Shown: positions 10,551 through 63,941 of the stretch, piece by piece
Layout of the letters: each line of letters starts with the position of its first letter
How positions within the stretch are numbered: position 1 is the first letter of the stretch
Assembly: GCA_008632985.1 (NCBI GenBank)
Contig: QPGO01000030.1
Coordinates: forward strand, 433,135-497,134
Length of the DNA stretch: 64,000 bases
Source of the DNA: Psammoneis japonica
Lineage: Eukaryota
Direction of reading: 5' to 3'
Translations under genes and position numbers: made by a program
The notes under the pieces: model-generated
The model's database searches: none
Told to the model about the DNA's origin: nothing
The model's input: only the letters and a program-made list of their open reading frames with translations

Positions 10551-12479
10551 AGCTCCCAAAAAGTTGCCAGCTTCAATCACCCTCTCGCATGACATTGTGT
10601 GCATTTCTGCACGATTTGGCATTTTTTCTTGTGCAAAATGCCAATTGTGACTCTTGCAACATTTTTGAATGATTCCCACTGACTTCCTTGTTTTAGAATT
10701 GTGCCCATGCACTGCGCCATTGTGGCCATCCCAAAGTTCCCACCATTGAGACCACACACAACAACTGCCAATTGCAGCGGCCCAGTCTGATTGCTGGTCT
10801 CTGTCTGACACAGAGTGATGCAAGCCAGAAGATGTCTTGTTGGGGGCGGTCAAGAAAGTCTCTTGTGGGGTGCACAAAGACAATGGGGAGAAAGGATGCA
10901 TGAGAAAATGGATGCACACAGGAGGTGAAAGAAAAGGGGGGGTGCGTGCCGTCATGCAAACAGGTGCCATCTTTGCGGGTCCTCCTGATTTTGTGCTTGG
11001 CTTTGGATTGATGCTCTTGTTTGTTGTCATCATCTGGGCAGCCAGCCTTCTGACCACACATTCTGCAATGAAGTGTTGTGAGCTGCTTGCCATGCCTGGC
11101 TTGTGTGCCAGGTTGCTCCTTGGGACAGCACTTCCCAAATTCATGATTCAACATGCAATTGATTTTTTCTTTGCACGCCTCCCAACGGGCAAGGGAATCA
11201 CCTGCCATCATCACAGAGTTCTTTGTGTTGCCAATTTTGTCCTGTGTGAAAAAGCCCTTGATCTCGTCCTCCTGGGATCCCGGGTCATTGGAATTGCACA
11301 CGACAAGAAAGCTGTTGATGAACATGCGCCACTCCTTTTGGGCATTGACACGGCAAAAAATCTGCATGAACCAAAAGTCGATGTCCTTTGGTTTGCACTG
11401 GATGCAACGCACGACAATTTTGGTGACAAAATGAAGGTCATGTGCATGGTCATCAATCAGCTCTTTTAGACTCTTGCACCATAAAAAAAAACAGGCTCGC
11501 CAGAGACTGGATCATTTGGGTTGTTGTGGGTGATGATCGTGTGAACAAATTTTGCTGTGAACAAATTTTGCCATCGCTTGGATGTTGCGGTGAAGTTGTG
11601 TGCAGTGCTCCTCTTCTTTGACTGTCTCTCTGGGTGATTTGGAGAAATGGAGAGCTTCCTCCAAATTTTGACAACAAAGAACATGTTCACCTTTCAGCGT
11701 GCAAGATTTCTTCAGGGACCAACCACAAGTCATGATGTGAGACCAAATGTCAGGGCATCCAAGAGTTTTCTTGACAATGTTGTTGGTGCGGATGACTTCT
11801 GCAACACATGGAATGCAGCGCAACTTTGGCTTGTGGCAAAGGAAGGGAAGAGCAAAGAATTCTGGAGAGGGAGTCCAGCTTGTTGTCTCCAAAAAGTGCT
11901 TTTTGGATGCACATGTTGATGTCATGCTTTTGAGCTTGGGACCAAACAACTCCATTCCAAAACTGTTGGCAAAACATTTTGTGTCATCAAAATCAACTGC
12001 GTTGGGAAATTGGAAGGAAGGGTTGGGGTTGACCTTGTCATGGGACAGGGTAAAGTCATTGACTGCCATGGCAAGAAGTCAGTTGTGATTCACGTAGAAT
12101 GTGTGTGAATCACAGCGCATGGTCAAATGCAGTTTGGGGAGAGGATGTGCTGTCATGAAATGCATGAAAAATTGTTGTGCATGTGGAGTGTGTGTTTGGA
12201 ACCGGGTGGAGAGCCGTGCATGGGTGGAGCTGTTGAAAACAACTGTCAAAGACAACATTTCAAAACAAAGGCAATGTTGTCATCAAATTGCAGCGCATTG
12301 AAATGAAGAAAAGGATGCACACAAATTGATTGCCAAAAATGAATCAAAACAAACAGGTGACAAGCATCCACACAAAAGGCATCTGACAAAGGCACTGTGT
12401 TGTTCACTTTTGCATGCAAAAATCCAAATTAATGGAGGAACATGCATGACATCAATTTGCATGAATCAGACAAAGAGAA

Positions 12480-14013
12480 GTGAGCACCACTGTGTTGCGG
12501 CCTCTGGTGATGTGGCAGGTCCAGTTTGGTTGACTGGCATTGGCCATCATTCAGGATGCATCATTGTCCTTGCAGATGAGGGTGGCTTGCATCTGTGGTG
12601 CAGACAGTTCATCAAGAATGGAGCAAAGGTGCAAAGCCATCTTACCTGCATCCAACGCAGAGACAAATTCTGCTTCCAAGGATGACATGGACACCATGGT
12701 TGCACACGAATCTTCCATGCTGTGGTGGCACCGGTGAGTGGGAAGGCAATGCCAGCAATGGACCAATGGTGATGGATGTCGGCAGCCCCCAGTCAGAGTC
12801 CTTGCAGCCAGTGAGCTCTGTTGGAGATGCCGCATGAGGAGGTTGGGGTGACAGGTGGAGCGGAGGTGCAAACGGAAGAGATTTGTTGGAGCAGGGTCAC
12901 CAGCATGCTGGGTCAAAGTCCAGGTGACAATGGGTGCACCGCAGCACATCCTTGACACCTTCACAGAGGATGGAGCCAGGGTTGGAGCTGAGTTGACTCA
13001 GCTTGGCAATTGAATGACTCAGGTCAACTCTGGTGGTGACCATGGGCCCACATGAGTTTGCTGCTGGCTTTGCGGCAGGGGAAGCCATGCTGGTTTTGAA
13101 GTTGGTGGGATTTGGCTTTGTTGGCAGGGGGGTGGGGGCCTTGTCAAGAGTCTTGCTGTGGGAGGAGTTGCCAGGCATGGGGAGGGTTGGAGTTCACAGG
13201 GGTTCATCCAGCACATCAAAAAAGGGGCAGTTCTTCAGAATCTTTGAGGTGTGAGGTGCTGTGAAGGCAGATGCAGTCTTGGGTCTGCTCAACATCACAA
13301 CCAAGGAACAGAGTGAGCAAACCTTGACATTTGATCTTGCCTCCAGTCAGGTTGTCGTCCACAATGTCGCAGGCAATGTTGTGCATTGCATTGCCATTGG
13401 CAGCTGTTGCAAAATCGTCCACCTGTCAAAGGAATGGCACTTCTTTGCCATTGATCGCACCACTGCAGATCCACGGTTCATGGTCAGTGGATGCAAGGCT
13501 GAGTTCAGCGCAGATGATGCGGTTGATGTGCTTGTTCCACAGGTGGGGAGACTCAGGGTGTCCTTGGAAAGCCTTGAGAACTGGGAGCACATGCCCTTCA
13601 GGGGGACAGGAGGGCAGCAGAGATGGCTTGTCCACCAATTTTGGAACACCTTGTCAACACACATGTGGAAGCACTGTTTCGGTGGCAGAGATTTGGCAAA
13701 AAAGCATCACTCACATCTGTGCCATGCACACACTTGTTCTTCAAAGCTGCCAAAGCAAAAAGCAAGCACACACAAAACCAAAACCCATGTGGAACCACTC
13801 TGCCGGAGCCAGATCTGTGTCATCCACCACAGGGCCCACAGGTGCCTGTTTGGGCTTGGCATTGCTGCACACTTGGCAGAAGCAATGTGGGTGCAAAAAG
13901 GCCTGGAGAGCAGCAGGGAGGCCTTCAGCGTGGCGTTGCAGATGTGCAAGTTGATGCATGCTGGGGTGACCAAGATGGTGGTGCCACAGTTCACTGGTGG
14001 CCACACGTTGCAT
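12480..14013 (-). mobile_element. Ty1/copia (CoDi-like) pol remnant: GAG-pre-integrase, RT, RNase H; internally deleted
   Basis: ELWHHHLGHP..FCQVC, FHMGFGF; RT ALAA..HGTDVSDAF, KAFQGHPESPHLW, QVDDF, TRVDLSHSIAKLSQ; RNase H SSLEAEF..GKMALHLCSILDEL..ICKDN. Confidence 0.88.
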
Positions 14014-14274
14014 GGACCTCAGAGCAGGGTCCAGGGCATCTGCAGGGGGTGAAGGGTCAGGTGATGGCTCCAGCTGTGGCAGCAGGGCCGTGTCGGCAGG
14101 ATGGGCCTAGGAGGTGTGATCCAGAATGTCAAAAGAATGGCCACGGTTGCGTGACATGGGGCATGCTTCACAAGGGTGCGAAAAGTGCCCTGGAGTTCTG
14201 TGGCATCCATGGTCAAGGGAACATTGGGGCGGAAGTGCAGCACAAACCAGAGGCCATTTGCACTTGGTTGGCAA

Positions 14275-15160
14275 CATGCCACACCAGAAAAGTTGTGGAC
14301 ATCTTTCCTTGCAACCTGTCAGAAAGTTGAGGACAGCACATCAGAAAAGTTGTGGACAACCCATTGGAAAAGTTGTGGGCAGCACAGCAGAGAAGAGGTG
14401 CAGACAACTCATCAGAAAAGCTGCAAGCAGCACACCAGCAAAGTTGTCAACAACATGCCAAAAAGTTGTGCCAGGAAAAGTTGCAGGCATCTTTTCTTGT
14501 AAATTGTCAGAAGTTGTGTGCAGCACCTCAGAAAAGTTGTGAACAACCCATTGGAAAAGTTGAACACAACACACCAGAAAAGCTGCAGATGACTTTTCTT
14601 GCAACCCATCAAAACAAAAGCCAGGCACTGGGCAGTGGTGGATTTTGATCCTTGGATGTGGAACAATGCATGTCACAAGCCCAACAATTGTGGGCAACTT
14701 TTCTTGCAACTTGCCAGAGAAGCTGTGGACAGCACACCAAAAATGTTGTGGACATCTTTCCTTGCAACCTGTCAGAAAGTTGAGGACAACACATCAGAAA
14801 AGTTGCGGATGACCCGCTGGAAAAGTTGTGGGCAGCACATCAAAAAAGTTGCAAACAACCCATCAGAAAAGCTGCAAGCAGCACACCAGCAAAGTTGCCA
14901 ACAACATGCCAGAAAAGTTGTGCCAGGAAAAAGCTGTGGACAATCCATTGGAAAAGTTGTGGGCAGCACATCAGAGAAGTTGCAAACAACCCGTCAGAAA
15001 AGCTGCAAGCAGCACACCAGCAAAGTTGCCAACAACATGCCAGAAAAGTTGTGCCTGGAAAAGTTGCAGACATTTTTTCTTGCAAACTGTCAGAAAAGTT
15101 TTGGACAACACCTCAGAAAAGTTGTGGACAACCCATCAGAAAAATTGACAACAACACACC
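14275..15160. repeat. Complex tandem array built on AGAAAAGTTGTG/GGAAAAGTTGTG units with higher-order duplications
   Basis: Dozens of GAAAAG(T/C)TG cores; blocks at ~14280-14510, ~14735-14930 and ~14930-15140 are mutually similar. Confidence 0.85.
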
Positions 15161-15179
15161 AGGCATTGCATGTGAAACA

Positions 15180-15690
15180 AAGGGTGTCACAAGTCGGGCA
15201 ATTCTCCATCATGCAAGATGCACAACACAGCCCCTTGTGTCAATGCCTGTGCAACTGGGGGGCCAACCTGCCACCCACCAAAACATTTGCTGCCAACAAC
15301 GTCAAGGATTGAGAGATTGTTTCTGTGATCATGCACAAACATTGGTGTGTTGGGCACATGTCAAGAAGGCTCAATGCAACCAGGACAGCAAGAAAGCCTG
15401 CCTGAACAACTTGCACAACAAGTTCTTGGGCCCAGATGATGTTGACAACATGGCTGATGCAGCTGAAAGGTGCTCAGCAGGTCTTTCCTGTCACAGCAGA
15501 CATCAAGACAGGAGCTTTGAGTGGCCAATCCATGTTCATGTTGAGCAGCACTCTGTCATTGATGGCCTCAAGGAGTGTGGCCATGCTGGAATTGACAAAT
15601 GCTCCAAGGTGCACCACCTGCTGGAGAGAATCAAGGATGCGTCCCTTGTGTGTGCAACTTCTTCCAACGTATTTTCACAACAGATTTGAG
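15180..15690 (+). mobile_element. Copia (CoDi-like) gag remnant
   Basis: WAHVKKAQ..DSKKACL..HNKFLGPDDVDNMA..FEWPIHVHVEQHSVIDGLKECGHAGIDKCSKVHHLL resembles diatom copia gag with Tyr replaced by Cys/His (recalled family pattern). Confidence 0.7.
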
Positions 15691-16747
15691 GTGACTCCCT
15701 GTCCTCCAGTGTGTCCCTGCTGCACAGCGGACCTTCTGCAATCAAAGAGGGAGTCAAGAGTCCACTGAATTGACAGAAGATGATGTTCTTTGGACAGCTT
15801 GCAGTCAAGTCCAGAGCCATCCCATTGTGGAGAAAAGCAGGGATTTGAGAAAGCAATGATGCGCAGTTCCATGCAGGTTGCCTCTCTGTGGAGCCCAGAG
15901 CAGTTTTTTCTGTGTGCAGCCACCTCGCACAGCTCTGTGGGGTGCTCCTCACTTGGCTGTGGGTCAAGCTGTGCCAGTGTGTTTGGAAGTTGAACAGAGA
16001 ACTCACTTGGCTGGAAAAGAACTTTCACAGCTTGTCCACCAAAGCTTTCGTGCATTGACTTGACTGCTTTGCATGACTTCATTTGGCATGCCGCTGCACT
16101 GCTTGATGTGCAGAGCTGGCCCTTTTGCTGCAACTGTGCCCTCTCCCCCCACCCCAACAAACAGTGGGAAATCCATCAAAGATGGCTTGCCAAACTGTCA
16201 TTTGGGTGCTGTTGCAGCTCAGTCCATTGCCCAAAGTGATGCCGCAGAGACTCGTCGTGAAAGCTTCTCACGACAGAGAAACAACCACAGCTCTTGCTTG
16301 CCCAGCAAGTCAGGCAGAGTTGTCATCAAAGGACAACTCATTGGACTCATGCACACTGGTCTTGCTCCAACTGAAGCTTGTTGGTTCACTTGGGTGCTGC
16401 GCCTGTTTCCAAAGATGCCCAAAACTCCAGATTTTTGGCGGCACACATCATTTGACATCATCATTGCTTTCATTGACCCCAAAAATGGTTGCTTTTTGGA
16501 ACATTTTCTTTGTTCATTTGAAGCAAAGGCAATTGTGCAATTGCTGCAGTGCAATGATGCAAGTCATTCAAGCGAGCAACCAGGTTCTCAGTGGCCTGTT
16601 CCAGCCCCAGGTGATGAGAAATCCATCAAGCAAGAGGCCAATTTTCAGTGCAGTTTGGCGCATCAAACTCCTTCAAATTTGATCTTTTTTTTGTGTGCAC
16701 TCACCTTTTGATTTGGAAAAAACCCGATTTTGAAGCAGTTCATTGCG

Positions 16748-17430
16748 CCAAATGTGAAAATGGCCAGTGATGGGAATCGAACCTGTGCGCATCACCTGGA
16801 GCTGGAACAGGCCCCCAGTGAGAACAACCTCGCGGTCATTGTGGGAAACCACAACCAGATTCATGGTGCAAATTGCACAGCTGATGGGAGCTGCAATGCT
16901 CTGACTGGTTCAAATGCCATTGCCAATGGGAGCTGCAATGCTCTGACTGGCGCCGCCCAATGCTGTTGCCCGTGGGCACTGCAGTGTTCGATCTCATTGG
17001 CATCAATGCCTCTGCTGCAACTGCACATGGTGGCCAGCTTCCCCCAGCTCAAGTGCCTGACATTGGCAAAGCCACAAGCTCACATGCTTTCCACACTTTG
17101 ACTTTCATCATGGTGTCCAAGTGAACAATCTTGAGGATGGGATTCCTGTTGCCGAGCTCATCAAGGGGGGGGCATCCGCTGAAGAGCTGGAGCATGGCCA
17201 AGTGCTGCCAGATGACACGAGTGGGGTCAGATGTTCCATCTGCTGTGAGAGGTGCCCCAACTGCATTGCTTGGCCTTGCATGCTGCACAAGGGTTTTTGC
17301 ACACAATGCCTCCGGCTTTTGAGCTGTGGCCCAAGTGGAAGTGAAGCCAAGCGCACCAGCCAAGTCCAGTGCCCGCTCTGCAGCACAAACGTGTGCTCCA
17401 TTGATCGCATCTTTGAGCAGGCTGACTCAG
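16748..17430 (+). pseudogene. Degenerate gene with Asn/Gly beta-solenoid-like repeats and a C-terminal RING-HC finger
   Basis: GNHNQIHGANCTADGSCNALTGSNAIANGSCNALTG, then in another frame CSICCERCPNCIAWPC..HKGFCTQC...CPLCSTNVCSIDRIF. Confidence 0.6.
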
Positions 17431-17451
17431 ACCCCACGAAGTCATTTCATG

Positions 17452-17770
17452 CAAGAGGTCAATCTTTGGAAGATGACCATGTGCTGTCTTGTTTCCATGC
17501 GAGAGGTCAATCTTTGCAAGATGATCACCTGCGATGGAAAGCTCGAGACTCTCGGGTTTCTGTGGAAACACGACTCATTCTCCACCTCATTTCTGTGTGA
17601 GAGGTCAATCTTTGCAAGATGATCATCTGCAATGGAGAGCTTGGCTCAGATTTCTAAAGGCTTGGCTCACTGTGCGAGAGGTCAATCTTTGCAAGATGAT
17701 CATCTGTGATGGCAAGCTCAACTCAGATTTCCAGAGGCACGAGTCAATCTTTGCAAGATGATCATCTGCG
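17452..17770. repeat. Five copies of a ~30-bp repeat (GAGAGGTCAATCTTTGCAAGATGATCATCTG) with related variable spacers
   Basis: Copies near 17453, 17500, 17599, 17676 and 17741; most spacers share ATGG.AAGCT...CTCAGATTTC-like sequence. Confidence 0.85.
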
Positions 17771-18210
17771 ACAGAAAGATTGACTTGCATTTCTACAAGC
17801 ACGTTGTTGTGTCGACCAATGCAGCAACGATTTTGCAGATGTCTCGTTTTGTTTCTCTTGCATCTTGCCTTGCTTGCTCACTCTAGCCCTGCATTGTTTC
17901 CACCCGCCGTCATCAGTCATCGCTGTCCGGTCGTTTTTTGGCGCGCCCTGAGCTGAATCACGCACTGTCCACGCACACAGGTTGTTGGTTCCTCCTCTCT
18001 TGGGTGGAACTCTCTGCATCAAAGTCTGAAACCGAAAGATTTTGGATTGCCGTGCTCGCTGCCATCAGAAAATAGAGGCGTGACGATTGCTTGCACCAAT
18101 CATTTTGCTGCATTTTTTTTACCTGTCAAGTGAGTTTTGCGCCGGGCGTCCAAATCAATTGTAACATGTGACGGTTGTTTTTTCGAAACAGGGTGCTGCG
18201 GCAAGGGCTG

Positions 18211-18716
18211 AGATGAGCGCGCGGACACAGGAAGTGGTCAGTCCCGCATGCTCGTGACTCAGCACTTTCCTGCGGTGAAAATTGCGCAGAGATCCGAAGA
18301 TGACAAAAACGGTCTGATGACTTCCGCCAACAATGATGTTGGCTGCATGTGACGTACATTCAATGTTCTTTAATGTGTGAATGAACCACTTTGAGCATTG
18401 GATGCAGTTGCTTTGACGAACTTCGCCAAAACAACGCTTGGCACTGCTTTGCGTGCAAAGCTGCGGCACTCCGCACGACTCGTCTTTCGTTCGGAGCACC
18501 TTCCAGTTCATCAAAGTAACTGCGTCTAACGCTTGAAGTGGTTCATTCACATGTTAAAGAACATTGAATGTACATTGCATGCAGTTGACATCATTGTTGG
18601 CGGAAGTTGTCGGACCGTTTTTGTCATCTTCGGATTTCCACGCAATTTTCACTGCAGGAAAGTGCTGAGTCACGAGTGGGCGGGACTGACCACTTCATGT
18701 TTGCGCGCGCTCATCT
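18211..18716. repeat. Foldback element: ~212-bp inverted arms (18211-18422 / 18505-18716) with ~82-bp spacer
   Basis: Arms align without gaps by eye; most mismatches fall in pyrimidine-purine dinucleotides. Confidence 0.88.
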
Positions 18717-18883
18717 AAGCCCTTACGCACTTCTGCACGACCCACGCGACCTGACTAACATGCGTTGGGGCCAGAGCAGTGCGCGGTGCTGGTTGTTTTG
18801 CTTCTGACCGTTCTGTCTTCTGTGAGGTTTCATGAGTTCATCTGTGCATGTTGATGTTGTCTAATTCGAGGTGCGGTGGCTTG

Positions 18884-19097
18884 AGTGAAAGTGCAAGTGT
18901 GCGAAATTTGCGCATTGATGCGGTTGTCTTTGCCAAATGGTTGGCTGCAACTTGCGCCCATTCCATCATTTCTGTCCATGCTCGTTCCGCGGTGGCTCAA
19001 GTGAAAGTCCAAGTGTGTGAAATTTGTGCATTGATGTGGTTGTCTTTGCCAAACAGCCAGTTGCAACTTGCACCCATTCCATCATTTCTGTCCACAC
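18884..19097. repeat. Tandem direct repeat, 117-bp period, 2 copies
   Basis: GTGAAAGT.CAAGTGTG.GAAATTTG.GCATTGATG.GGTTGTCTTTGCCAAA...CCCATTCCATCATTTCTGTCCA at 18884 and 19001. Confidence 0.8.
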
Positions 19098-19772
19098 TTG
19101 TTCCGTAGGATCCTTGCTTGCTCCTTCTCCTGCTCCGTTGCTCCCACTTCTTCCAGCTCCTCCTCAGTGAAAAATCTCCCACCAGTCTGTGGTGGTGCTG
19201 CCGCCCATGCTGCCTTCAGCTCCTCCATGGTTGAATCATCCCTGGGCACGACCGTTGCTTCCACACGATGACCGTCCACTCTCGTGTTGTCTGGCGCAAG
19301 TGCAGATGAGACATCACAATTTCCTGAAGCAAGCTTGAATGCTGCTCTTGCTTCTTCCACCGTAATCTTCTCCCCGCCTTCTTCATTCATTGCTGACCAA
19401 AACAGCTCCGCATCTGTCTGCACCCTTTTCTTGTCCTCTCCAGTTTTCTTTGGCTCGTCTGCCTTCTTTGTTTGTTGTTGCAAATCCATTTTTCTCTGTT
19501 GCTCCATTTTGTGTGACGTTTGCATTCACGCATTCTTGGTTTGTTGGTTGAAATCCATTCGACATTGTGTGACGCATGTGCAGATTTCTGCGCAATGTGC
19601 TGGTCTAATCGAAATTGTCGATTTTACGAAATTGTCACATTTTTACGGTTGGTTTTGCCAAACAGTTGCACAGTGGTTGGGCACCCTGATCTCATGTTTG
19701 CGTGCTGCATTGACACTTCTGCGTGTTGTTGCTGAGAGAAATGCGTGGCGCTTCTCTCCTTCATGAGTCTTG

Positions 19773-20275
19773 TCAAAGGCTTCGTAGCCTTTTGGGACCT
19801 TGCATTTTCGCAGGTCCTTGGTCAGTGGCTTTTCGCATGAACAGCCCTTCTCTGGTCTTTGCTCTGGAGAGCACAACATGCACCCAATTCTGAGTGCAGC
19901 TCCAAGAGTGTACAAACAACTGCGGGACTCCACTCCCTTGCAGTTTGTGCCCTGCAGTGGCACTGTTGATGACAAACGGCAGCTGGGTTGCCTTCAGTTG
20001 GAAAGTGCACCTTTGTTTGTCGCCTTCTTCTAAAGTTGGGTTGGGCTTGGCAATGCAGGCCCTGAAAGCATTTGCCCTTGGCTCAACTGAAAACTTCACG
20101 GGGGTGATGCTTTTGTTGCGGTGTTCCAACACAACATGGTCTGCCTGACTGGCAAGCACAGCAGGAACGCCAATGTTGTTGTCTAAAGTCACTGGTCTTG
20201 GCTCCTGTCCTGGTTTGAGAATGACCTTGTTGACAGTGGCTTGCACTCCGTTTGCTTGACCCTTTGCCACAGCTG
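19773..20275 (-). mobile_element. PIF1-family helicase C-terminal remnant (Helitron-like)
   Basis: GQANG, QLPFVINSATAGHKLQG (motif V) and NWVHVVLSRAKTREGL (motif VI). Confidence 0.8.
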
Positions 20276-20769
20276 TCGTGGTCGCACCACGAGTGGCTCC
20301 TCGTCGCACTGGACACCCTGGGGCCCACGTAGATTCCAGCCGCGCTGCCTTTCTGGAGCTGGCACGCAGTGAAAAAACCAGTGCCTGCACCCCTGCGTTG
20401 CGAAAAGTGGAGCTCGCCCACCTCCACCTCCTTGGGACCTGTGGAGCCAGCGGACTTTTCGAGGCAAAACAATGCAGGTTGAAGTGACGCGGCGCCTCAT
20501 CCAAAAATGCACACTTCTTTGCTTGCTCTCTTCATGAGGCAGACCAGTGCGAGCGACCACCCCGCTTCGAAAGCCTCGACGGCGGTCTTGAACATTTTGT
20601 TGCTCTTCGGCATTGAGTCTGGGATGCCCCTCTCGCCGACTTCCATGCGGCACCTCCACGCCCACTTGTGGTGTTCGCCGTGGGCATTGGCAATGGCTTC
20701 AGGGTCACTGCTGGTGCACCCCAGTTCTCCCAGTGCGGGGAACCAGAGGTCGGGATGATTTTTGCAGCA

Positions 20770-21190
20770 TGCATGCAGACAAAAGGTCATTTTTGTCATG
20801 CCCTTTGTGACATTTAAAGGCTGCAACACGTCGCCGTGATGCATTGACTCTTGTCAGTGGCTGTGTGTTGCACTCCTCCCCATGTGTCACGCGTCCATGC
20901 GGCTCTTTGCTGACGTGCACTGACACTGCACGGTTTTGGTGGAACAGTGTGGGTGCGCATGAAGGAACAAACAGAACTGCACAGAGTTTTGCGCATTCGA
21001 CAGTGACCAACGTTGCTGCAGACAACTCCCACTCAGGGTTTCGAACCCCTGGCCTCCTGCCCAATGGTTGCGATGAACCATTCCGCTGTGAGCTCACAAC
21101 GCAGTGTGCATGCAGACAAAAGGTCATTTTTGTCACGCCCTTTGTGACATTTAAAGGCTGCAACATGTCGCCGTGATACATTGGCTCTTG
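20770..21190. repeat. ~83-bp direct repeat, copies at 20770 and 21107
   Basis: TGCATGCAGACAAAAGGTCATTTTTGTCA.GCCCTTTGTGACATTTAAAGGCTGCAACA.GTCGCCGTGAT.CATTG; copies differ by CG/TG twice and TA/TG once, plus one other transition. Confidence 0.85.
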
Positions 21191-22794
21191 TTGGCAGCTG
21201 CACATTGCAGATTCGACGCATCCTTCATCATGCACATGGCCTCCTGGAAATTTTTGGATTTTTCGTGCCGCCACAACCAGTCCCACAAGTCGAGCGACGG
21301 CTTGCTGGGGTCCGGAAATTGCTTTTCTTCCTCTTTCTCTTCCTCCGTTGCTTTTGTGGCCACTTTGGCCATGGGCTTGGCTGCCTCCTCGCTTTTGCCG
21401 CCGCAAAGAGCCAGGGCCTCCGGTTTCAGGACGGTGGCCTGTCCACCCAACACGTCGATCTTGCAACCAGCCAAAAGGAGCTGCTCGGCGGTGCAGCCCA
21501 GCTGCTCTGCTTCTTTCAAACCACAAATTTGAAAGGTTGGCTCCGGCGGCACGGCTTTCTCCCCATTTTCACTTTGGGACTGTGCCGGCTTCTCCGACAT
21601 CCTTGTGCGTTCGGACTTGACAGACACACACCCTCGGCACTTCCCACGGCGCCGAGTGCAGTCATGGCAACTGCCGCCGCAGTCATGCCTTCGGCGCCCG
21701 TGAGTTCTGCCGCCACTTCCAGAGCTGCTTTGCCAGACAGAACCATGTTCTCCTCCGCCATTCTGACGCCGTGATGACAGAGGTGCGCTGACTGCTGTGT
21801 GCTGTGTTCCAGGCGTTGGCGATCCACATCCTTCTGCGCGCACAAACGCGCGACACTTTGCACCGCACTGAATTCGACGTGCCCAACGATGCCCAACGCA
21901 CCCCACCTGCCGCTCCCGAGTTCCTCAACGGCCTGCCTCCACCACTTGTATGGGGCTACGACTAGCAAAAAATGCAATATGATATAATCATTGACATATA
22001 AAAAACATTGATATGATATATTAATGACGTATATACAAGAATGCTGAATGACTGCATATGACTTTTTGTGTAACATTTGTACTGTTCTACGCACTTAACG
22101 AAGAAAATGCTGAGGCAATACATAGAATGACTCTTCATAAGTACGAATTCAAATGAAGGTCATGCCCACGCCCGCCACGCCATTTAATCAAACATACGAG
22201 CATATATGAAGTATTATTCAAAGACGGAGTTGACAAACGGAGTATCGACGGTTGAATGTGTAACATTAAAAAAACATCTAAATAGTTGAAAAGTATGGAC
22301 TTTTGTGAGACATTTGTATATGTAGCACATGTAAAACCTGCTATTTGTTTTGGCAAAAACCGTTATCGTTAAATAAAGGGGTACATAAAATCCAATACAA
22401 AATGTCTGACCGGTATAACAGGTACGTTTATGCTAGTCGTAGCCTCATAATTGTCGCCGGGACGTGGTGCGTCTGCACCTCTGTGCGTCCGTCTGCACTG
22501 CGCACTGCGGTGCTACAGCGCCCCGCTTTCTTTTCCTTTTCTCTTCTTCTGGCTGGGAGGAACTGCTGGATAGCCTGGGTATAACAAACAACAACACTTC
22601 GCACCTTCGTTATCGTCATTGAAGAAACCACAAAGCACATAAGAGCTCTTAAACGACTTATAATCCATCGGCAATGGTGAAACGAAAAGTTAAAGCCAGT
22701 CTGAAGACTGACAGCATGGAAAAGAAGGCTCCGCCAGTTTTGAAGCTCCCCAAACAATGGCCAATGGCAACTAAACGAGCTTCTTCTTCTCCTC

Positions 22795-28531: not shown

Positions 28532-31500
28532 TCAACGTCGGGCAGCGCCAAACGGCGTCGGACTTCCGAATGATCCTCCCAAGCCGCTTGAGGGTGAACC
28601 AAAGGCGCCAAACCCAGTGGATCCCTGAGTTGCACTGCCCATTTGCGGCGTTGAGCTCTGGGCAACAGCACCAAAAGAAGTGGCGAAGCCTGCAGAGCTA
28701 CCAAAAGTAGAGCCTGACTTGGCAGCTCCACCGAAGGCGTTGGCAGGAGCATTGTTTCCCAAGGGAGCAGTCTGGCCAAAACCAGGAGTCCCACCCCCAA
28801 ATGGTGAAGATCCAAATGTTGATGGCTGGCCAAAGCTCGACGTGCCAGGTGATGCGGTTGTTGTTGCACTTACGCCAAAGACAGCTGGATCAAGGGTGTA
28901 CTGTACAAGAATTGCATTTGTTAGGTATCATAAGATAGACAAGCTTTCGTTATCTGAGAGCATAACATACCTTCTTTGCCAAGTTCAGAAACAACTGCTC
29001 TTCCTTGTTCTTATATTTGTCCAGCAGCCTGTCAACCTCTGAGAGCTTTGCTGGGTTCTTTTGCTGGTAGAATTCAATGAGCAAGTCGCGCGGGTTGCGA
29101 CCGCCAAACTTTTGGTTGTTTTGGCCTGGAGCCGGGGCATAACTCGCGCCGCCGAAGGAAAGCCCCGGTTGCGCCGGTTGTCCGAACGGAGTCGAACTAG
29201 GCGTTCCAAACGGGGTAGGACTCGAGTTTTGGACAGGTGGGTTCCCAAAGACGGAAGAGGGAGCTGCTTGAGACCCTCCTGACACAACAAACGGAGACGG
29301 AGACATTGGTGGCTTCGACGGCGCATCAAAAGAAGGAGCGGGGGGGTTGACTGCTGACCCTAGCTTTGATTGTAACGGTTTTGCGTTCACCGCGAACGGT
29401 GATGGCGACGAAATATCGCTGTTGAAAGTTATGCCGACGGTAGAAGCAGACACCGCTGAGTCCAGAGGATTGGCAGCGTTGTACTTCTTTGCCAGTTTTT
29501 CAAACAATTCGCTCTCCCGCCCCTACAAAGTTGAATCCAATGATGAAAATGAAATGAGGATATACTCAAGATACGTAGACTATTCCTACACCCAACATAC
29601 CCAAAACAACTAACCTTGTACTTCTGGAGGGTCCTGTCCACATCGCCAACCTTCGATGGGTTCACTTTTTCATAAAATTTCGTCAAGATTGCATGGTAGT
29701 CCCTCGCATCAACTGCTTTCGTAGGCGAGGACTCAGCCATATCACTGAAGGTAGCTTTGGGACTCGTTTCCCTTTCAGTCGTCGTGGCAACAAGGGATTC
29801 CCCGAGTAAATTCATGCTCCCGAACGATGACGTCTTCATACCTGCGGACGACGATGCGGGTGGGTTCTTCAATTGTGTCTCGGCACTTTCGTCGTGGTTT
29901 GACTGGAAAACTCCCCTGGATTCACTGGTCGATGACGATTTCCCGGTGGTTCCCGAACGAGACGATTTCTCTGGTTTCGCTGGTGGCGGGACAGAACTTT
30001 CCATTTGCGAGAAAGGTTTTGGGGCTACCTTTGACATGGGTGGAAACGCGGCTGCCTGTGGTTTGGGGCGAATCGGAGTCTTAGATTTCGAAGCGGCAGA
30101 TGGGGGGGCGCCATAGGTTTCACTGACAACGATGCTTTAGCTGGAATTTCTTGTTGTTGTAGTTCTTCTGAGAGATCCGATGCATTTGTGAAAGCCAATC
30201 CTGACTGAGAAGCGACCCCATCGCCACGCCTTTTTGTGTCAATCGCAGCGAGAGTTTTTTCTGGTGTCGTGCCAAATGCACTGAGAGCCTTCTGCGCTGC
30301 AGTCGAAGAACTCACCTCCTTTACTTTCTGCGGAACAGCAAAGTTGAGAGCTCGTGCCTTTGTTTGGGCACTAATGGGCGTTTTCCAGTCCGATCTAACT
30401 GATGTCAAAGGCGAAGGGGAAATAAGCAGCCCCCCTTGAGACGATCGTGCGCGGTCTGTACTGCTAATCTCACTGTCGTAAGCTTCTGCTCGATGCATTG
30501 AACGTTGTGACAATAGCTTAGACCCACCTAAACTTCTCCAATCGTTCTGAACTGTTTTCTGCTTTTGCTGGGAATTTGACATAAATACTCGAGACTTCTG
30601 CAGCAATGGCTTTCGTGGGATGTTGGCCTTTCTGAGAGCTTGAGTTGCCAGTTCCACCCGGCGGATCCGTTCTGCCGTGGAACAAAGCGCTTCAGGACTT
30701 GATAGAGAAGACATTGCTTTGGGATGGAATGGCCTCAGAAGGGAGTGCGATCGGCTCAAAACGCCGTCTCCGGTCTTTCGGGGTGGTTGTCTTTGATGGG
30801 CTGGCCTTTGGAAGAGCCAGGGCGGACGGACTTCCCGGCTTGCGTGCTGGTTTTGTCATCTCGAACAAACGGCTTCGAACCGATGCTACAATTGTCTCCA
30901 AATCTTTTGTACGTTTGTATCCCTTTTGCATCGACAAAAGCAAAGCGGTATTCGCCATTTTTGACGACACAACTCCTGACGAATCACCCGTGTCAGCAAA
31001 CAGTTGTTTCGATAAAATGATACTCTCACGTAAGCCATTTAGCTTGCGTTGCACGAATCCCGCTTTGGACCCTACGCGGCGACGGATTGCCTCTGATTCC
31101 GAATCCAGAGGCTGCGACTTCAGAAGTTCCGACATTTGACCACCCCCTGCGTCACCCTTGCTATTGTCAATCAGTCGCTTGGATTCTGCATTTTGCTTTT
31201 GAACATCAGCATTTCGGCTCATCAAGAAAACTGCGCTCTCTTTATGTTCTGGAACAACTTTTTCTCGACTCTCAACTTCCATAGTAACGTGATCAATCTC
31301 ATTAATCAGGCTTGTAATATCCTTCTCAAAAGTGCTATCGCGGAAGCTATCACCGCCTGACATAGCGGGCAGTCTAGTCACAAGGTTCCGATACTCAGCT
31401 TCATAAACTGAAGCTGCAGGTTTCATTTCCGGTCTTGCTACAGATTTATTGTGCTCAGAAGCATGTTTCGGTTTGCCGGGAGTTCTAGAATGCCCAGTAA

Positions 31501-34500
31501 CACTGGTTTTCATACCCAAACCTTTCTCAAATGGAATGGACGCTGCCGCTGCCGAAGGACGGTGACCAGCTGGACTAAATGGGTGAGCGGAAGCTCCGGA
31601 TAACCTGTCACGGGAAGCACTGCCTGGCTTTGATGGTTGCTTTGTCGCAGAGAAACCTGTTGTTCCTGAATCAACAACAGATTTTTGTTCTTCCGTTTTC
31701 TTTGAGGAATCCGTCGAAGTCGAAGACGTGTCAATCAACGGCTTCACAATCGGTGCAAGTGTAGGACCAACGGTCGAACCCGAAAAAACAGTGGGACTTG
31801 CACCAAACGGAGAAGCGCCAGTGCCAGCTCGATACGAGGTAGTCGATCCTGAGCTCGGTATCATCGTGGGATCCTTCGTGGTTGTTGACGACGAGGAGAG
31901 TTTGCTGAACGCCGTAGGCGCTGTCGTTGGAAGCGGAGGATACAAAGAATCCGGTACACTAGGTTTCGGCGTCTTTTCATCGGGAGGCTTTGTATCAAGC
32001 TTTTCTTCGTTTGATAGGTTCTTGGGTTCTGTAGCACTTGCTGACACCTTGGATTGTACGCTACTGAACGGAGTTGGCGCTTTTGTTGCAAGTGGAGGAT
32101 AAGCAGTCTTGGTATCTACACTCGACATCTTGCTGGTCTCCTTTGTGACTGTTGACGACGAGGAGAGCTTGCTGAACGCCGTTGGAGCTGTCATTGGAAG
32201 CGGAGGATATAGCGAATCTGGTGGACTAGGTTTCGGCGTCTTTTCAGCCGGAGGCTTTGTATCAAGCTTTTCTTCGTATGATAGATTCTTGGGTTCCGTA
32301 AAACTTGTTGACACCTTGGGTTGTATGCTACTGAACGGAGTTGGCGCTTTCGTTGCAAGTGGAGGATAAGCGGCCTTGGTATCGACACTCGACATCTTGC
32401 TGCGCTCCTTTGTGGCTGTTGACGAGGAGAGTCTGCTGAATGGCGTTGGAGCTGTCGTTGGAAGCGGAGGATAAGAAGAATCCGGTACACAAGGTTTCGG
32501 CGTCATTTCAGCAGGAGGCTTTGTATCAAGCTTATCTTCGCTTGATAGCTTCTTGGGTTCCATAACACTTGATGACACCTTGGATTGCGAGCTACTGAAC
32601 GGAGTTGGCGCTTTCGCTGAAAGTGGAGGATAAGAGGCCTCGCTGTCAACGCTCGAAGTCTTGCTGGGTTCCTTTGTGGTTGGTGGCGACGCGAAGACTT
32701 TGCTGAACGGCGTTGGAGCTGTCTTTGAAAGCGGAGGATACGTAGAATCGCTTACACTAGGTGTCGGCGCCTTCTCAGCTGGAGGCTTTGTATCAAGCGT
32801 TGCCTCTGATCCTGTCGAACCGATGGTGGTCTTGCTTTCTAGATTCTTGGGGGGCATCGGACTTGACGACGTCTTGGATTGTACGCTACTGAAAGGAGTT
32901 GGCGCTTTCGTTGCAAGTGGAGGATAAGGCGAAGCTGCAGCCTCTGCTTGCGTTTGGCTAACGAACGGAGTTGGCGCTTTCGTTGCAAGTGAAGGAAATG
33001 GCGAAACTGCAGCCTCTTCTTTCTTTTCCTTTTCCGCACTACCTGAAGAAGATTTTGCCGAAGGAAATCGAAATGGGGAAGACAAGCTTGAAGAAGGACC
33101 CTTCTCTCCCGTCGTCGTGCTAGCGTTACCACCGAAGCTGAAGCCAGTTGCCTTTACGGCCGCAGGTCCTCCGAAACTTGAACCAGCTGCTGGTATGCCA
33201 AATGAGAATCCCTTTGATCCTGACGTGGCTGCATCGTTCGCGGTTTGCCCAAACGAGCTTGCGCCAAAAGTAAACGTCGATGCAGGGGCTTTTGCGTCAG
33301 TACTCGACTCACTACCGGAAGGGGCTTCCGATGCTGCAATATTCTGGTCGCCTTGAATCGCTGCCGGTGTCGCGCCGAACGTAAATCCTCCGGGACCAAT
33401 GCCAGATCCGTCAGTCATTTTGCTATCTTGCTTCTCGACCGCGTCTTCACTGTGCCCAGGTCTGGGAGTTTCACAGGCTGGGCAAACTGTAGCACTCTCA
33501 GGGTTGCTAACCATGCAAACACTGCATTTCCAGGTAGCTTCAGATGTTTGAAACACTCCTACCCACCCACTGGCGGTCTGGGATGACGAGGCATCGGGGG
33601 TAGGTGACGCATCTGTATCCTCGGTTTCACTGACCAGCTCTTCCTCTGACGACGATTCACTCTCTTCGCAAAACAACCACCTCAAGTACCAAGCAATAAA
33701 GTTATTCCAGTGAATGTTCCCATCAGAATCTGCCAATTTCTCTTTCTTCCGACCAAGCTCTTCCTCGCAGTACGTTGTACCCAGCGCTTTAATGAGCTTG
33801 TCAAACGATGAGGCTGCAATGTACATTTCTGTCCCTTCCCCTTCGGCCATACCCGAGAATACCTTTTCAGCCCTCTCCGCCTCTTCAGCTCGCTCTGCTG
33901 CTTCATCAGAGTCCAACGAAGCAGCGTCACCACGACCAGTGTCACAAAGACTGCAATACCAGGAAATAAACGACGAGCGATCAATGAACTTTGTTCCTTC
34001 TGGGTCGACAAGATTCATTTGGTTTTCAAGCTCGTCTCCATGAAACCCTTCACCCAGCTCATCTACCATGTCTTCGAACTTAGAGACTGGAACCTTTCCT
34101 ACTTTTGAATCATCAAAGGTATCAAACACCCTGGCGGCATTCGCAGCACCTGGCCTTCCCAATAACGATTCCGTTGACGGTGTTTCCAGAGATGTGGACG
34201 ACTCCTTTGTTTCTGATTCGGTTTCCAAGGAGGAAGGAATGGATTCTGGTTGTTCTTCTTTCTCTTTAGAATCGTTTGAAGTCGAAGGCGTGCCAAACAA
34301 AGGCTTCACCATGGTCTGTGCAAGTCGACTACCGCCAGTCGAGCCAGGAATATCTGTGGAAAATGCATTGAAAGGAGAAGCGCTCGTCGCCGTCGAGCTC
34401 CGAATACCCGTGGAAAAGGCATTGAATGGAGAAGTGCCAGATGCAGACGTCGTACTTGATCCAAACGATGGAGCAGATCGACCCGAGCCAATGGCGCCCT

Positions 34501-37500
34501 TGCTACCGAGGCTTGTTATGCTGCTAGGTTCTTTTGTGGTTGGTGACGACGGCGAGAGTTTGCTGAACGGCGTTGGAGCTGTTTTTAAAAGCGGAGGATA
34601 CGTAGAATCGCTTACACTAGGTGTCGGCACCTTCTCAGCTAGTTTTGCATCAAGCGTTGCCTCTGATCCTGTCGATCCGATGGTGGTCTTGCTTTCTAGA
34701 TTCTTGGGGGGCATCGGACTTGTCGACGTCTTGGATTGTACGCTACTGAAAGGAGTTGGCGCTTTCGTTGCAAGTGGAGGATAAGGCGAAGCTGAAGCCT
34801 CTGCTTGCGTTTGGCTAACGAACGGAGTTGGCGCTTTCGTTGCAAGTGAAGGAAATGGCGAAACTGCAGCCTCTTCTTTCTTTTCCTTTTCCGCACTACC
34901 TGAAGAAGATTTTGCCGAAGGAAATCGAAAGGGGGAAGACAAGCTTGAAGAAGGACCCTTCTCTCCCGTCGTCGTGCTAGCGTTACCACCGAAGCTGAAG
35001 CCAGTTGCCTTTACGGCCGCAGGTCCTCCGAAACTTGAACCAGCTGTTGGTATGCCAAATGAGAATCCCTTTGATCCTGACGTGGCTGCATCGTTCGCGG
35101 TTTGCCCAAACGAGCTTGCGCCAAAAGTGAACGTCGATGCAGGGGCTTTTGCGTCAGTACTCGACTCACTACCGGAAGGGGCTTCCGATGCTGCAATATT
35201 CTGGTCGCCTTGAATCGCTGCCGGTGTCGCGCCGAACGTAAATCCTCCGGGACCAATGCCAGATCCGTCAGTCATTTTGCTATCTTGCTTCTCGACCGCG
35301 TCTTCACTGTGCCCAGGTCTGGGAGTTTCACAGGCTGGGCAAACTGTAGCACTCTCAGGGTTGCTAACCATGCAAACACTGCATTTCCAGGTAGCTTCAG
35401 ATGTTTGAAACACTCCTACCCACCCACTGGCGGTCTGGGATGACGAGGCATCGGGGGTAGGTGACGCATCTGTATCCTCGGTTTCACTGACCAGCTCTTC
35501 CTCTGACGACGATTCACTCTCTTCGCAAAACAACCACCTCAAGTACCAAGCAATAAAGTTATTCCAGTGAATGTTCCCATCAGAATCTGCCAATTTCTCT
35601 TTCTTTCGACCAAGCTCTTCCTCGCAGTACGTTGTACCCAGCGCTTTAATGAGCTTGTCAAACGATGAGGCTGCAATGTACATTTCTGTCCCTTCCCCTT
35701 CGGCCATACCCGAGAATACCTTTTCAGCCCTCTCCGCCTCTTCAGCTCGCTCTGCTGCTTCATCAGAGTCCAACGAAGCAGCGTCACCACGACCAGTGTC
35801 ACAAAGACTGCAATACCAGGAAATAAACGACGAGCGATCAATGAACTTTGTTCCTTCTGGGTCGACAAGATTCATTTGGTTTTCAAGCTCGTCTCCATGA
35901 AACCCTTCACCCAGCTCATCTACCATGTCTTCGAACTTAGAGACTGGAACCTTTCCTACTTTTGAATCATCAAAGGTATCAAACACCCTGGCGGCATTCG
36001 CAGCACCTGGCCTTCCCAATAACGATTCCGTTGACGGTGTTTCCAGAGTTGTGGACGACTCCTTTGTTTCTGATTCGGTTTCCAAGGAGGACGGAATGGA
36101 TTCTGGTTGTTCTTCTTTCTTTGGAGAATCGTTTGAGGTCGCAGGTGTGTCAAACAAAGGCTTCACCATGGTCTGTGCAAGTCGACTACCGCCAGTAGGG
36201 CCAGGAATTGCTGTTGAAAATGCATTGAAAGGAGAAGTGTTGGCCGCAGTCGAGCTCCGAATGCCCGTGGAAAACGCATTGAATGGAGAAGCTCCAGACG
36301 TAAACTGCGTACTTGATCCAAACGATGGAGCAGATCGACCCGACCCAAATGCGGCCTTGTTCCCGAAACTTGATATTTTGTCGGGTTCCTTTGTGCTTGT
36401 TGACGTCGAGGAGAGTTCACTGAACGGTGTTGGAGCTGTCGATGAAAGCGGAGGATACGAAGAATCTGGTACACTAGGTTTCGTCGTCTTTTCAGCAGGG
36501 GGCTTTGCATCAAGTTTCTCTTCGTTTGATAACGTCCTGGATTCGGCAGCACTTGTTGAAGCCTTGGATTGTAAGTTACTGAACGGAGTTGGCGCTTTCG
36601 TTGCAAGGGGCGGATAAGAAGCCTTGCTTGTAACACTCGATATCTTGCTGGGCTTCGTTGTGCTCGGTAGCGACACGGAGAGTTTGCTTAACGGCGTTGG
36701 AGCTGTCGGTGGGAGCGGAGGATACGAATCAGACAAGGTAGGTTTCTGCGTTCTCTCAGCTTGGGGCTTTTTATCAGACTTTGCATCCGTGCCGGATTCA
36801 GTTGTTTTTGTGAGGTTATTAGAGTCGAGCGTACCAGCAGTTTTGCTCTTAGCAAAGGCATCAGACGGTGAGTCACCAGAAGGAGCAGTTCCGAACCCAC
36901 TGAAGCTTGAGGACTCAGCACTTGCCGCTAAAGCAGCAAAACCCCTTCCCGTTGAAGTGGACGAGCCGAATGTTGGCATGGCACCGCCAGAACCAAAGAC
37001 ACCGGTAGATGCGGGAGATGCAAATGGTGGAGACTCGATTCTCGAATCAGATGCTTGTGTGACTGGAGGTGAACCGAACGTGATACTTCCCGTTTTTCCA
37101 AACGAGAAGCCGCCTCCAGGGACTGGACTGGCCGTAGACGAACCCACTAGAGTTGTTCGACCGGGGGAGGAGGATGGACTAAAACCGAAGTGCGTACCAC
37201 TACTCGTACCTAAGGTAGAGCCGCCGGTAGGTGCCGCTCCAACCGGAGCCGCCGGTGTCAAACCAGTCGGGGCGTCCGTTGTGGTACTTTCGTCAACAAT
37301 GTCTGGCTCGTCTTGCGCTTCCGCTGTGGAATCTTCGTCGACGATATCTGGCTCGTCGTACAATTCTGGTGGAGACACAGCTGTCTGATCGACCGCCGCA
37401 CTGGGCAGCGAGGGCAGTCCGACCACAGCAGGAAGGTCGGCGACGTTGAATATATCTTCTTGCCATTGGGTATCGATCTTAAAAACTGATAGAGAGCCTT

Positions 37501-38719
37501 CACTCGACCCAAGCAGCAATACCTGAGAAACCCCACCAGTATCTGAAGGAATCAATACGGCCTTCATACCGACAGGGAAAGTGAATTCGTCGTCATCGTC
37601 CGTTGGGGTTGACGCAACACTGCCTTCTTGGAGTTCTAGAACCTGCCAGTCTCCATTGGAGGAAACAACTCCCACTTCGCTTGCAACATTGCTGGCTACA
37701 AGGAGCAAGGAGAGCTGCTGCGTCGTTGGAACAAAGGAAGTGAAATATACGTGTCGACCATTCCGTGGTATTGAAAAGAAAGGTACAACATCTTCCAAGT
37801 TTGTCCACTGAGACGTCGCGTAGGAGCCAGTCTCGAATCGTCCAACGAAAAGTGCAACTTCATGTTGAGCCGGGTCATCCTCGTCTTCTTCGTCATCATC
37901 CTCGTCTTCCTCTATGATTCGGCAGAATCCAGCGGCAAGGTTCCTTCCCGAGTCAAACCAATCCAAGTGAGTGCAGGACCACCCCTCCGCATCATCTTGA
38001 TCTCCAGGGAACAGTAGGCGAGAAAGCTGCTGCACTGACCCCTGCGCCAAGTTGGCCACGAATATATGAATAAGACCATCAGATGCTCCAATTGCAAGAG
38101 GACACTGCGACCCATTTTGCTCGCTAGACCACGCCGCACTCGCCACTGGTATGCTGTCGAATTGACCATGAAAAATGTCTCTGGGTGCAGCGGAAGCCGT
38201 GTCGTATACGCGAAGAGTTTCTTGTTTTGAGTCTGCCAACAACAAAAAGTACCCCTGGGGTGTAAATGCGAGAGATCGTACCGGACCTGCTCCTGCGGCT
38301 GCGCGTTTGCGAGATTGGCAGGGCACCATGGACAAGTCGTGTACATCGTGGGAGTGAGACTTCGGAAGGGTCCATCGATGAATCAAGGAAGTGCTCATCG
38401 CATCATAACAGCGCAGGGACCCATCTATGCACGCTGTGGCTACCATACGACCGTCTGACGAACAAGCTACGGACACAACCGGGGTTCCAACCACGACGTT
38501 GGCGACGACTCTGGCGCCGTCGTTTGAGACGGACACGGCCTGGAGCACCGTGGCATCAGCAATGCAGTACGCCAATCCTACGCACTCGGACGGGACCGCA
38601 ACCCAATTCAACCCCGACAGTGTGGGTCTGGATGGATTCACCAACGGAGATCCGCCTTTCAGTGCTGATCCGATCAGCTCTAGTCGAAGCGACTCCTCGA
38701 GCGGTAGATCGCTGGTCAT
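28532..38719 (-). CDS. Giant FG nucleoporin, Nup214/Nup159-like (~3300 aa): beta-propeller, FG/FSFG repeats, duplicated EF-hand-like + RanBP2 zinc finger block, coiled coil, C-terminal FG region
   Basis: 2675-aa ORF continues through two apparent frameshifts (~30720, ~30095) and introns 29523-29614 and 28901-28970 into the FG-rich final exon; WKCSVCMVSNPESATVCPAC occurs twice. Confidence 0.75.
32700..36420. repeat. In-frame tandem duplication, 1857-bp (619-aa) period, inside the nucleoporin
   Basis: Matching ORFs offset by exactly 1857 (33682/35539, 33714/35571, 32839/34696); only scattered SNPs in the core. Confidence 0.92.
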
Positions 38720-40187: not shown

Positions 40188-40389
40188 GGTGACAGGACAG
40201 GTGACAGTGGACACAGTATCCTTGTGTCGCGTCGTTTCCCGCGATTATTCCGCGAGCCCCGAGCGAGCGCGCGAGCGCGCGCGATAGTCGTCCTTGCGCC
40301 TTTGAGCGTCAGTCAGTCGGGTGATTCAGTCACGCGGGATTGGGGTTACACGTGCCGATGTACGATCACAACGTCTACTGGACTCCCTC

Positions 40390-40910: not shown

Positions 40911-41095
40911 AGTGCCCTTCTGGGATGTGGCGCTGGTCATAGTCTGTTACTGCAAGCATGTCGTGAAGCCAGAATTCTATCTCACATTTTCCATCCTAGT
41001 TACTTTGATGAGGCTGAGCAAAAGCAGAAACTAACTTCTTTTGCCTACTATCAAATTAATCCTTTCTTGCAAGAAAAATTGATTCGGTCACCAAA

Positions 41096-60264: not shown

Positions 60265-61442
<1,178 letters not shown>

Positions 61443-61901: not shown

Positions 61902-63941
<2,040 letters not shown>

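Follow-up and report, generated by a model that had tools for sequence, protein, structure and literature searches.

The DNA from 21179 to 21948, which contains no TpA dinucleotide and many CpGs, belongs mainly to a young, dead Helitron that has probably (about seven chances in ten) been altered after insertion by two chemically different mutation processes, a fast one at TpA and a slower one at CpG, acting on the same target DNA. The fast process would convert TpA to TpG or CpA (A to G on either strand), most readily at TAC and TAT and as scattered single hits; it would be near saturation by ∼0.25% neutral divergence, and would destroy conserved tyrosines of the RepHel protein. The slow process would convert CpG to TpG or CpA, and would be near completion by ∼10% pairwise divergence. 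Fast TpA loss combined with slow CpG loss would leave young insertions TA-poor and CG-rich, and old ones without both. We document below both changes, together with their polarity, relative rates, context bias, confinement to the same DNA and the sparing of TA at element edges. The shared target is presumably silenced, CG-methylated chromatin, and the slow process would be deamination of 5mC. In this report, the term window refers to the whole stretch of DNA analysed (64,000 nt of Psammoneis japonica, contig QPGO01000030.1), and TA and CG values without units are observed/expected (o/e) ratios.

The element occupies positions ∼17983-22583 (minus strand), and is an internally deleted, non-autonomous Helitron with three nested insertions. 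It is collinear with two longer copies, L108 and L104, over five blocks (17985-18116, 18726-20267, 20272-20760, 21211-21864 and 22462-22575). In L108, a single 1767-aa frame contains the PIF1, Helitron_like_N and DUF6570 domains, as in Helitron rolling-circle transposons; this RepHel protein, which combines a Rep and a PIF1 helicase domain, has 156 homologs, and the window copy keeps only its C-terminal part (19773-20267, minus strand), which aligns at 81% identity with the last part of the 1768-aa frame of L052/L108 and has 87 matches in the genome. The window copy is unlike those transposons in its internal deletion and in the short asymmetric inverted motifs near its ends. The 8-bp motif on the left (17988-17995, plus strand), near which copies commonly start, is inverted relative to its partner on the right (22556-22563, plus strand), which is kept before the end of homology in 20 copies, and from their letters the two form a possible asymmetric terminal repeat. 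Such motifs may resemble the ends of Helitron2/Helentron elements, and they may mark such a group. Canonical Helitrons end in 5'-TC and CTRR-3', have a 3' hairpin and make no target duplication; the canonical ends were not recognised in the window copy, whose ends were placed by homology alone. Several alternative terminal sequences occur among the Helitron copies. A diatom host is indicated by a neighbouring peroxin gene, whose named homologs are from Attheya, a Bacillariaceae bin and Ditylum.

The leftmost nested insertion is a foldback element (18203-18724; TA 0.24, CG 1.04) with an inverted repeat, I2, whose 220-bp arms are 87% complementary, and it lies in a gap in the Helitron homology. 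The second is a high-copy short element (20761-21209; TA 0.11, CG 0.64) with 109-bp direct repeats (D17); it is missing from relatives, and contigs of one public DNA run contain empty-site joints (20756>21210). The summed contig depth of this element is 30-100 times that of the flanking Helitron, as for a very high-copy, TA-poor family. The third is a young, TA-rich MITE of 497 bp (21951-22447) with 17-bp terminal inverted repeats, flanked by a TA target duplication (21949-21950 and 22448-22449, giving 21949-22449 in all). It has lost none of 53 TA and none of 18 CG sites, and its empty-site joint (21948>22448) is present in one contig. Beyond it, the terminal 133 bp of the Helitron (22450-22583, minus strand) adjoin unique DNA and have kept their TA (4 TA, o/e 1.0).

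By dinucleotide count, 21179-21948 contains 0 TA and 54 CG (CG o/e 0.84, GC 59%, A 17%), which bears out the preliminary description of ∼770 bp lacking TpA and having dozens of CpGs; both of the motifs that it quoted are present. Homology to the Helitron begins at 21210, so that 21210-21948 is Helitron and 21179-21209 is part of the nested insertion on the left. The full TA-free run is 21178-21949, its right limit being the target duplication of the MITE. TG and CA are both in excess (o/e 1.40 and 1.55). The number of TA expected is 31.6 by base composition, or 17.7 at the rate of genic DNA in the window (o/e 0.56; P(0) ∼2e-8), in which the longest run without TA is 199 bp. Contigs of the public run span 30 of 30 bins of 20.2-22.7 kb, and 109- and 132-base pieces inside the stretch match them with zero differing letters; this run is a possible source of the assembly, and the agreement is thus not independent support. 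Among RNA data, no holder of the stretch was listed. The retention of CpG is only relative, as the window copy lacks 14 of the 49 family CG sites in this stretch. The same trend had been proposed for most of 18-22 kb; it is uneven there and applies only in part, with CG at 0.99-1.04 in 17.9-18.7 kb, 0.55 in 18.7-20.3 kb and 0.64-0.75 in 20.3-21.2 kb.

At this position, the progenitor was itself poor in TA. The stretch was compared with its own 91-Mb genome, giving 44 matches when 40 of 366 candidates were scored; among these, the relatives comprise sisters (89-90% identical) and a large subfamily (81-85%). In the relatives, 28 columns of 21179-21948 show TA or mixed TG/CA, mostly as single-copy oddities, and ∼10-12 of these look like true ancestral TA sites. 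The region is the TA-poorest of the terminal 2.4 kb, with 2-3 sites per 250 columns versus 5-20 elsewhere. With a progenitor having only ∼10 TA here, most of the shortfall from 32 is a matter of inheritance or composition, and the mutator took only the remainder. The absence of TpA from unmutated homologs, which had been named as an argument against the proposed TpA erasure, is thus half-way reached in this stretch but not in the whole element. There is next to no chance that the pattern is an artefact of assembly or of a GC-rich composition that always lacked TA; the base composition and the few ancestral sites point that way, but relatives keep TA where the window has TG or CA (e.g., 21464, 21764, 21843 and 21866), and both TA to TG/CA and Tyr to Cys/His replacements are family-wide. 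For the whole element we rule it out; for the zero count in 21179-21948, ancestral composition does provide the explanation.

Loss of TpA was scored in two alignments, one of 20 copies projected on a single reference (terminal 7.4 kb) and one of 20 partly overlapping elements (helicase side); the copies are the best-scoring matches, which biases them toward young ones. Columns with fixed TG/CA (930 and 884), minority CG (61 and 90) or TA+CG (3) were left out of the counts. The 259 TA-class columns of the terminal 7.4 kb contain 1824 CA, 1736 TG and 1175 TA cells in the 20 copies, and the 335 TA-class columns of the helicase side contain almost solely these three dinucleotides. Each copy has lost 68-84% of its TA (means of 75% and 78%, respectively), where ancestral TA is inferred for the 44-55% of columns having no surviving TA; the conservative values, from the 145 and 150 columns in which TA survives in some copy, are 56% and 50%. 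With 40 of 366 candidates scored, no unmutated progenitor was found among the 20 + 20 loci, all of which show this range of loss. About 30 near-full-length copies (L088-L127) are of similar age and all have heavy TA loss, as if the whole burst had been inactivated; no unmutated copy was found among those examined. Private changes outside TA and CG columns amount to ∼0.25% (0.15% transitions and 0.10% transversions). Change at TA is ∼280 times the background per dinucleotide, which is an indirect estimate from the copies and a lower bound near saturation.

The direction of change was checked independently in the RepHel protein, where alignment with 47 outside homologs identifies 26 columns of conserved tyrosine (five columns with ancestral F or T were left out). 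At these positions the copies have Y in 90 cells, C in 263, H in 157, R in 5 and S in 1, so that C, H or R occupies 425 of 516 cells, as expected for TA to TG/CA. At conserved tryptophans, by comparison, all 299 of 299 cells keep the residue. Among 120 outside RepHel homologs, a single one (P0004, 49% identical) has 0.8% Tyr and raised Cys/His, versus 2.5-4.9% Tyr in the other 119; its deficit may be this signature again, in a different assembly or family.

Two copies share the same outcome, TG or CA, at a frequency of 0.62-0.64, versus 0.55-0.56 expected from context; the hits are thus largely independent between copies, and most of them came after insertion. The sequence context is pronounced: sites that are TAY on both strands keep 5-7% of TA, those that are TAR on both strands keep 47-48%, and at mixed sites the TAY strand is favoured (1462 versus 579 and 1769 versus 870 hits). 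Surviving TA in the window islands is mainly within TTAA, CTAA and TTAG. Outside TpA, A to G changes occur at 0.003 per cell, 120-230 times more rarely than at TpA. Outside TA and CG columns, A to G (0.0031) is ∼3 times as frequent as C to T (0.0011) and is highest at AA; the excess may come from weak off-target action of this mutator. Host genes in the window are spared, with TA o/e 0.56 versus 0.00-0.24 in transposon blocks.

CpG decays in the same Helitron copies, at a lower rate. The 554 CG-class columns of the terminal 7.4 kb contain 8874 CG, 697 TG and 673 CA cells in the 20 copies, which corresponds to a loss of 14% (range 4-21%) split evenly into TG and CA; the helicase side has also lost 14%. 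This loss is ∼68 times that of other C to T changes in these copies. Spontaneous deamination raises CpG change ∼10-fold in mammals; the rate here seems high for such a process, and counts against it. Per site, TA has received ∼1.4-1.5 hits and CG 0.15, a ratio of ∼10, or ∼5 by the conservative count, so that TpA erasure is indeed the faster of the two, by 5-10 times, and, being A to G at TpA with a preference for TAC and TAT, is also a different change, as the preliminary description had supposed. Its further view that the two are uncoupled does not stand, because CpG decays in the same copies, the losses correlate across copies (Spearman 0.48, p=0.03, and 0.52, p=0.02; n=20 each, in overlapping sets), and 26 gene-flanked MITEs have essentially lost neither. 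A 14-copy pilot over 2.4 kb gave no cross-copy correlation (rho 0.20, p=0.50). Within copies, local co-loss is in 3-12% excess within 150 bp, which is not significant per copy (p=0.25 and 0.20).

The cross-copy correlation of ∼0.5 would also be expected if there were a single process, in which deamination of 5mC at CpG opens patches for an error-prone polymerase of the eta type and TA loss is a by-product; the top background A to G class, AA to AG (0.0040 versus 0.0029 and 0.0021), is in keeping with this. We consider such a repair origin very improbable because per-site TA hits exceed CG hits by 5-10 to 1, TA hits show no same-strand clusters (observed/expected 0.98-1.04 across all distances), and A to G is strictly specific to TpA. 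Nor does a nearby CpG promote TA loss, as TA is kept at 0.31 at distance 2 versus 0.20-0.24 farther away (rho -0.11). A separate question is which base is altered, as TpA is palindromic and A to G on one strand is therefore T to C on the other. A lesion on thymine (oxidation or other modification of T in TpA) fits the data equally, since the context bias reads just as well as an effect of the 5' neighbour on T. The genome has no Tet_JBP match, in a search that is uninformative because it had no match in the control either; we regard a thymine lesion as unlikely, and it would leave the picture of two processes otherwise unchanged.

The relation between the two losses extends to the genome. We surveyed 396 intervals of 500 bp, taken from 20 stretches of 10 kb that had been chosen by position in large contigs (4 of 400 intervals, containing N, were left out). 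TA is below 0.2 in 156, of which 108 have CG below 0.4 and 25 have CG of at least 0.7, while none of the 209 intervals with TA of at least 0.35 has CG below 0.4. CG-poor DNA thus almost never keeps TA, and this nesting of CG-poor within TA-poor intervals is expected from two rates acting on one target. The window has one CG-poor, TA-rich patch, the reverse of the islands (40501-41000; TA 1.64, CG 0.22), where 40350-40950 is simple sequence rich in CTAG/TAG (25 CTAG in 600 bp).

The MITE copies bear on which DNA is targeted. In 26 of the 29 MITE alignments, TA is normal in one or both flanks, and these copies, which diverge from their nearest neighbours by 0.6-4.5%, have lost only 19 of 1290 TA and 12 of 447 CG sites. 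The other three, in which both flanks are poor in TA, have lost TA at 38/49, 40/46 and 32/32 sites and CG at 2/18, 11/18 and 13/14, respectively, so that in this series TA goes first and CG later. The edges of the Helitron behave similarly. Over its final 200 bp, TA survives in 52 of 87 cells next to a unique flank versus 16 of 108 next to a transposon flank (p=7e-11, with cells treated as independent); at the far end, TA survives in 60 of 92 cells within the first 100 bp, and the first 200 bp keep CG in 250 of 264 cells versus ∼0.86 inside. A host inverted duplicate of 801 bp (60275-61075 and 63128-63928, 90% identical) has normal TA (22 and 19 sites). Together, the flank-dependent sparing of MITEs and ends and the normal host duplicate point to a chromatin domain whose edges are soft, rather than to homology alone. 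The duplicate is an unannotated frame; of its 80 differences, 17 are CG-class and 10 TA-class, a mild excess. Position alone is insufficient, because an insert within TA-erased DNA in L093 is nearly intact (TA 0.89) and a short-element copy in L058 has lost only 2 of 14 shared TA despite erased flanks; these may be later arrivals, or the process may be episodic or sequence-guided. Elsewhere in the window, a 2685-aa frame (30692-38749, minus strand) with WD40, EF-hand and RanBP-type zinc-finger domains has internal repeats of 267 bp and 1857 bp; although it contains a 300-bp repeat at 98% identity, its TA content is normal.

Targets might instead be picked by repeat pairing rather than by chromatin state, in a homology-triggered, RIP-like editing of reversed polarity. 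RIP has a length or identity threshold, and short or diverged repeats could escape such a process, so that the sparing of the 26 MITE copies (500 bp, 91-100% identity) and of the 801-bp duplicate (90%), which argues against it, might reflect a position under the threshold. The targets are multi-copy transposons, and diatoms are reported to have DNMT4/RID-like enzymes (PMC9998398). The sparing of Helitron ends varies with the flank even though homology is equal, and the NCLDV target in Bigelowiella is described as single-copy in the preprint text (bioRxiv 10.64898/2026.01.13.699255). On this balance homology triggering is improbable, and a silenced chromatin domain remains our preferred target.

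Older repeats in the window extend the series. A repeat at 10835-12220 (TA 0.04, CG 0.35) keeps 15 of 83 family CG sites. Old transposon fragments at 12500-17880, whose nearest copies are 65-89% identical, have lost both dinucleotides (TA 0.02 and CG 0.21 at 12.5-14.2 kb; 0.02 and 0.24 at 14.2-17.9 kb), and 12.5-13.0 kb is presumably Copia-like, judging from motifs. Island 2 (43340-50130; TA 0.03, CG 0.11) has also lost both, so that the joint loss previously noted for island 2 and 12-17 kb is confirmed (TA 0.02-0.03, CG 0.11-0.24). No long relative of island 2 was found among 15 scored candidates, which gave short matches only (66-93%), and for this reason we read it as the oldest block; it may be a single-copy target, like that in Bigelowiella, or simply an old repeat. 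Pfam families were not detected in the 15 island-1 frames listed first, in 2 further island-1 frames or in 4 island-2 frames.

The CpG/TpA ratio, which had been suggested as a means of dating insertions, fails in that role, since its denominator, TA, reaches saturation too soon. Dividing CG by TA o/e gives 1.2 in the MITE, 8-10 across 10.8-14.2 kb and ∼4 in island 2, and the single Helitron copy yields ∼4 in one part and infinity in another; the ratio is thus non-monotonic with age and unequal within one insertion. This weighs on the strong form of the proposal, in which the loss of TpA is fully uncoupled from that of CpG and insertions can be dated by the ratio. Rates and contexts do differ, one copy (L089) has lost 70% of TA but 4% of CG, and TpA-only hypermutation has been measured in Bigelowiella, as the main text of the preprint reports (bioRxiv 10.64898/2026.01.13.699255); nevertheless, both losses are restricted to one and the same DNA, where they co-vary, and we give the strong form little credence.

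CG retention scored against the family, by contrast with the ratio, tracks age. In the family of the 10.8-12.2 kb repeat (19 copies plus the window copy), CG retention in family columns, which were defined in a way that favours the young subclade, declines as the distance to the nearest neighbour grows (rho -0.63, p=0.003, n=20). The six copies whose nearest neighbours lie at 2.4-4.1% retain 55-64% of CG columns; retention is 44% in one copy at 6% and 13-25% in nine at 8.3-12.5%. The exceptions to the trend are four copies that form two near-identical pairs and retain 21-25%; these are probably late duplications. Raw CG o/e agrees in this family (0.66-0.80 versus 0.21-0.39), with TA at 0.00-0.14 throughout, while along young Helitron copies it ranges from 0.45 to 1.4 through ancestral composition. 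The CG clock stops in untargeted copies.

The signature, as read from the alignments, appears to be a variant of a process described once before, in the rhizarian alga Bigelowiella natans, where integrated NCLDV and virophage DNA undergoes TpA-specific hypermutation (Mettrop et al., bioRxiv 10.64898/2026.01.13.699255). According to the main text of that preprint, the rate in mutation-accumulation lines is hundreds to ∼1000-fold above background, only some lines are active, transposon domains occur among TpA-poor genes, and an ADAT2/3 deaminase is the candidate, as a hypothesis (bioRxiv 10.64898/2026.01.13.699255). Both systems have A to G/T to C changes confined to TpA, on both strands, in foreign or mobile DNA only. 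They differ in host and target, which here are a diatom (a stramenopile) and a Helitron, a MITE and other repeats; in the near-complete erosion here, with CpG decaying in the same DNA; in the preference here for TAY over TAR, a comparison with the preprint's main text; and in that the rate was measured there and is inferred from copies here. The words 'CpG' and 'diatom' are absent from that main text (bioRxiv 10.64898/2026.01.13.699255). In a full-text literature search, with subscription journals mostly outside its coverage, no diatom case of TpA hypermutation came to light. The slow component resembles the CpG decay of methylated transposons, in which CG to TG/CA changes in copies rise with age; such decay accounts for the slow component only and not for TpA loss, and methylation here is presumed. 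In Phaeodactylum tricornutum, transposons are reported to be CG-methylated by DNMT5a (PMC9998398).

In Neurospora and other ascomycetes, RIP also inactivates transposon copies by dinucleotide-specific transitions confined to them. RIP acts premeiotically, depends on RID, and makes C to T changes mainly as CpA to TpA, so that TpA is made from CpA. The polarity here is the opposite, with TpA lost rather than gained, and CA to TA is the rarest transition class in the Helitron alignments (15 of 31835 cells, 0.0005), so that the process is not RIP; 500-bp multi-copy repeats and the host duplicate are also spared here.

For the enzymatic step in itself, we tentatively suggest adenine deamination in DNA by an enzyme of the TadA/ADAT type, which we hold to be somewhat short of an even chance. 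The genome has 27 cytosine methyltransferase-domain (PF00145) and 9 deaminase-domain (PF00383) matches, all unclassified, and PF00383 genes are expected in any eukaryote. Two loci (G000:C41:505477-506590 and G000:C317:55748-56795) each contain a pair of adjacent deaminase-domain matches, the best of which have identical scores. A broader and still more speculative reading is that a diatom genome defence reads a silencing mark on new transposons and episodically deaminates adenine at TAY in double-stranded DNA, killing the Helitron burst within ∼0.25% neutral divergence through its tyrosines. Such a defence would be shared with Rhizaria and may be an old, SAR-wide A to G counterpart of RIP, and the CpG decay may be enzyme-assisted.

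So far, a preprint on a single alga contains the only measurement of a transposon-directed A to G mutator of DNA, and the diatom footprint adds a second SAR lineage. It also adds properties that can be tested, namely the TAY preference, the scattered single hits, the sparing of ends beside unique DNA, and CpG decay at 1/5-1/10 of the speed. For the transposons themselves, raw divergence badly overstates age, as copies with 95% identity have each diverged by only ∼0.25% once TA and CG sites are set aside. Retention of TA and of CG would instead serve as two clock hands, the first for very young insertions and the second for older ones.
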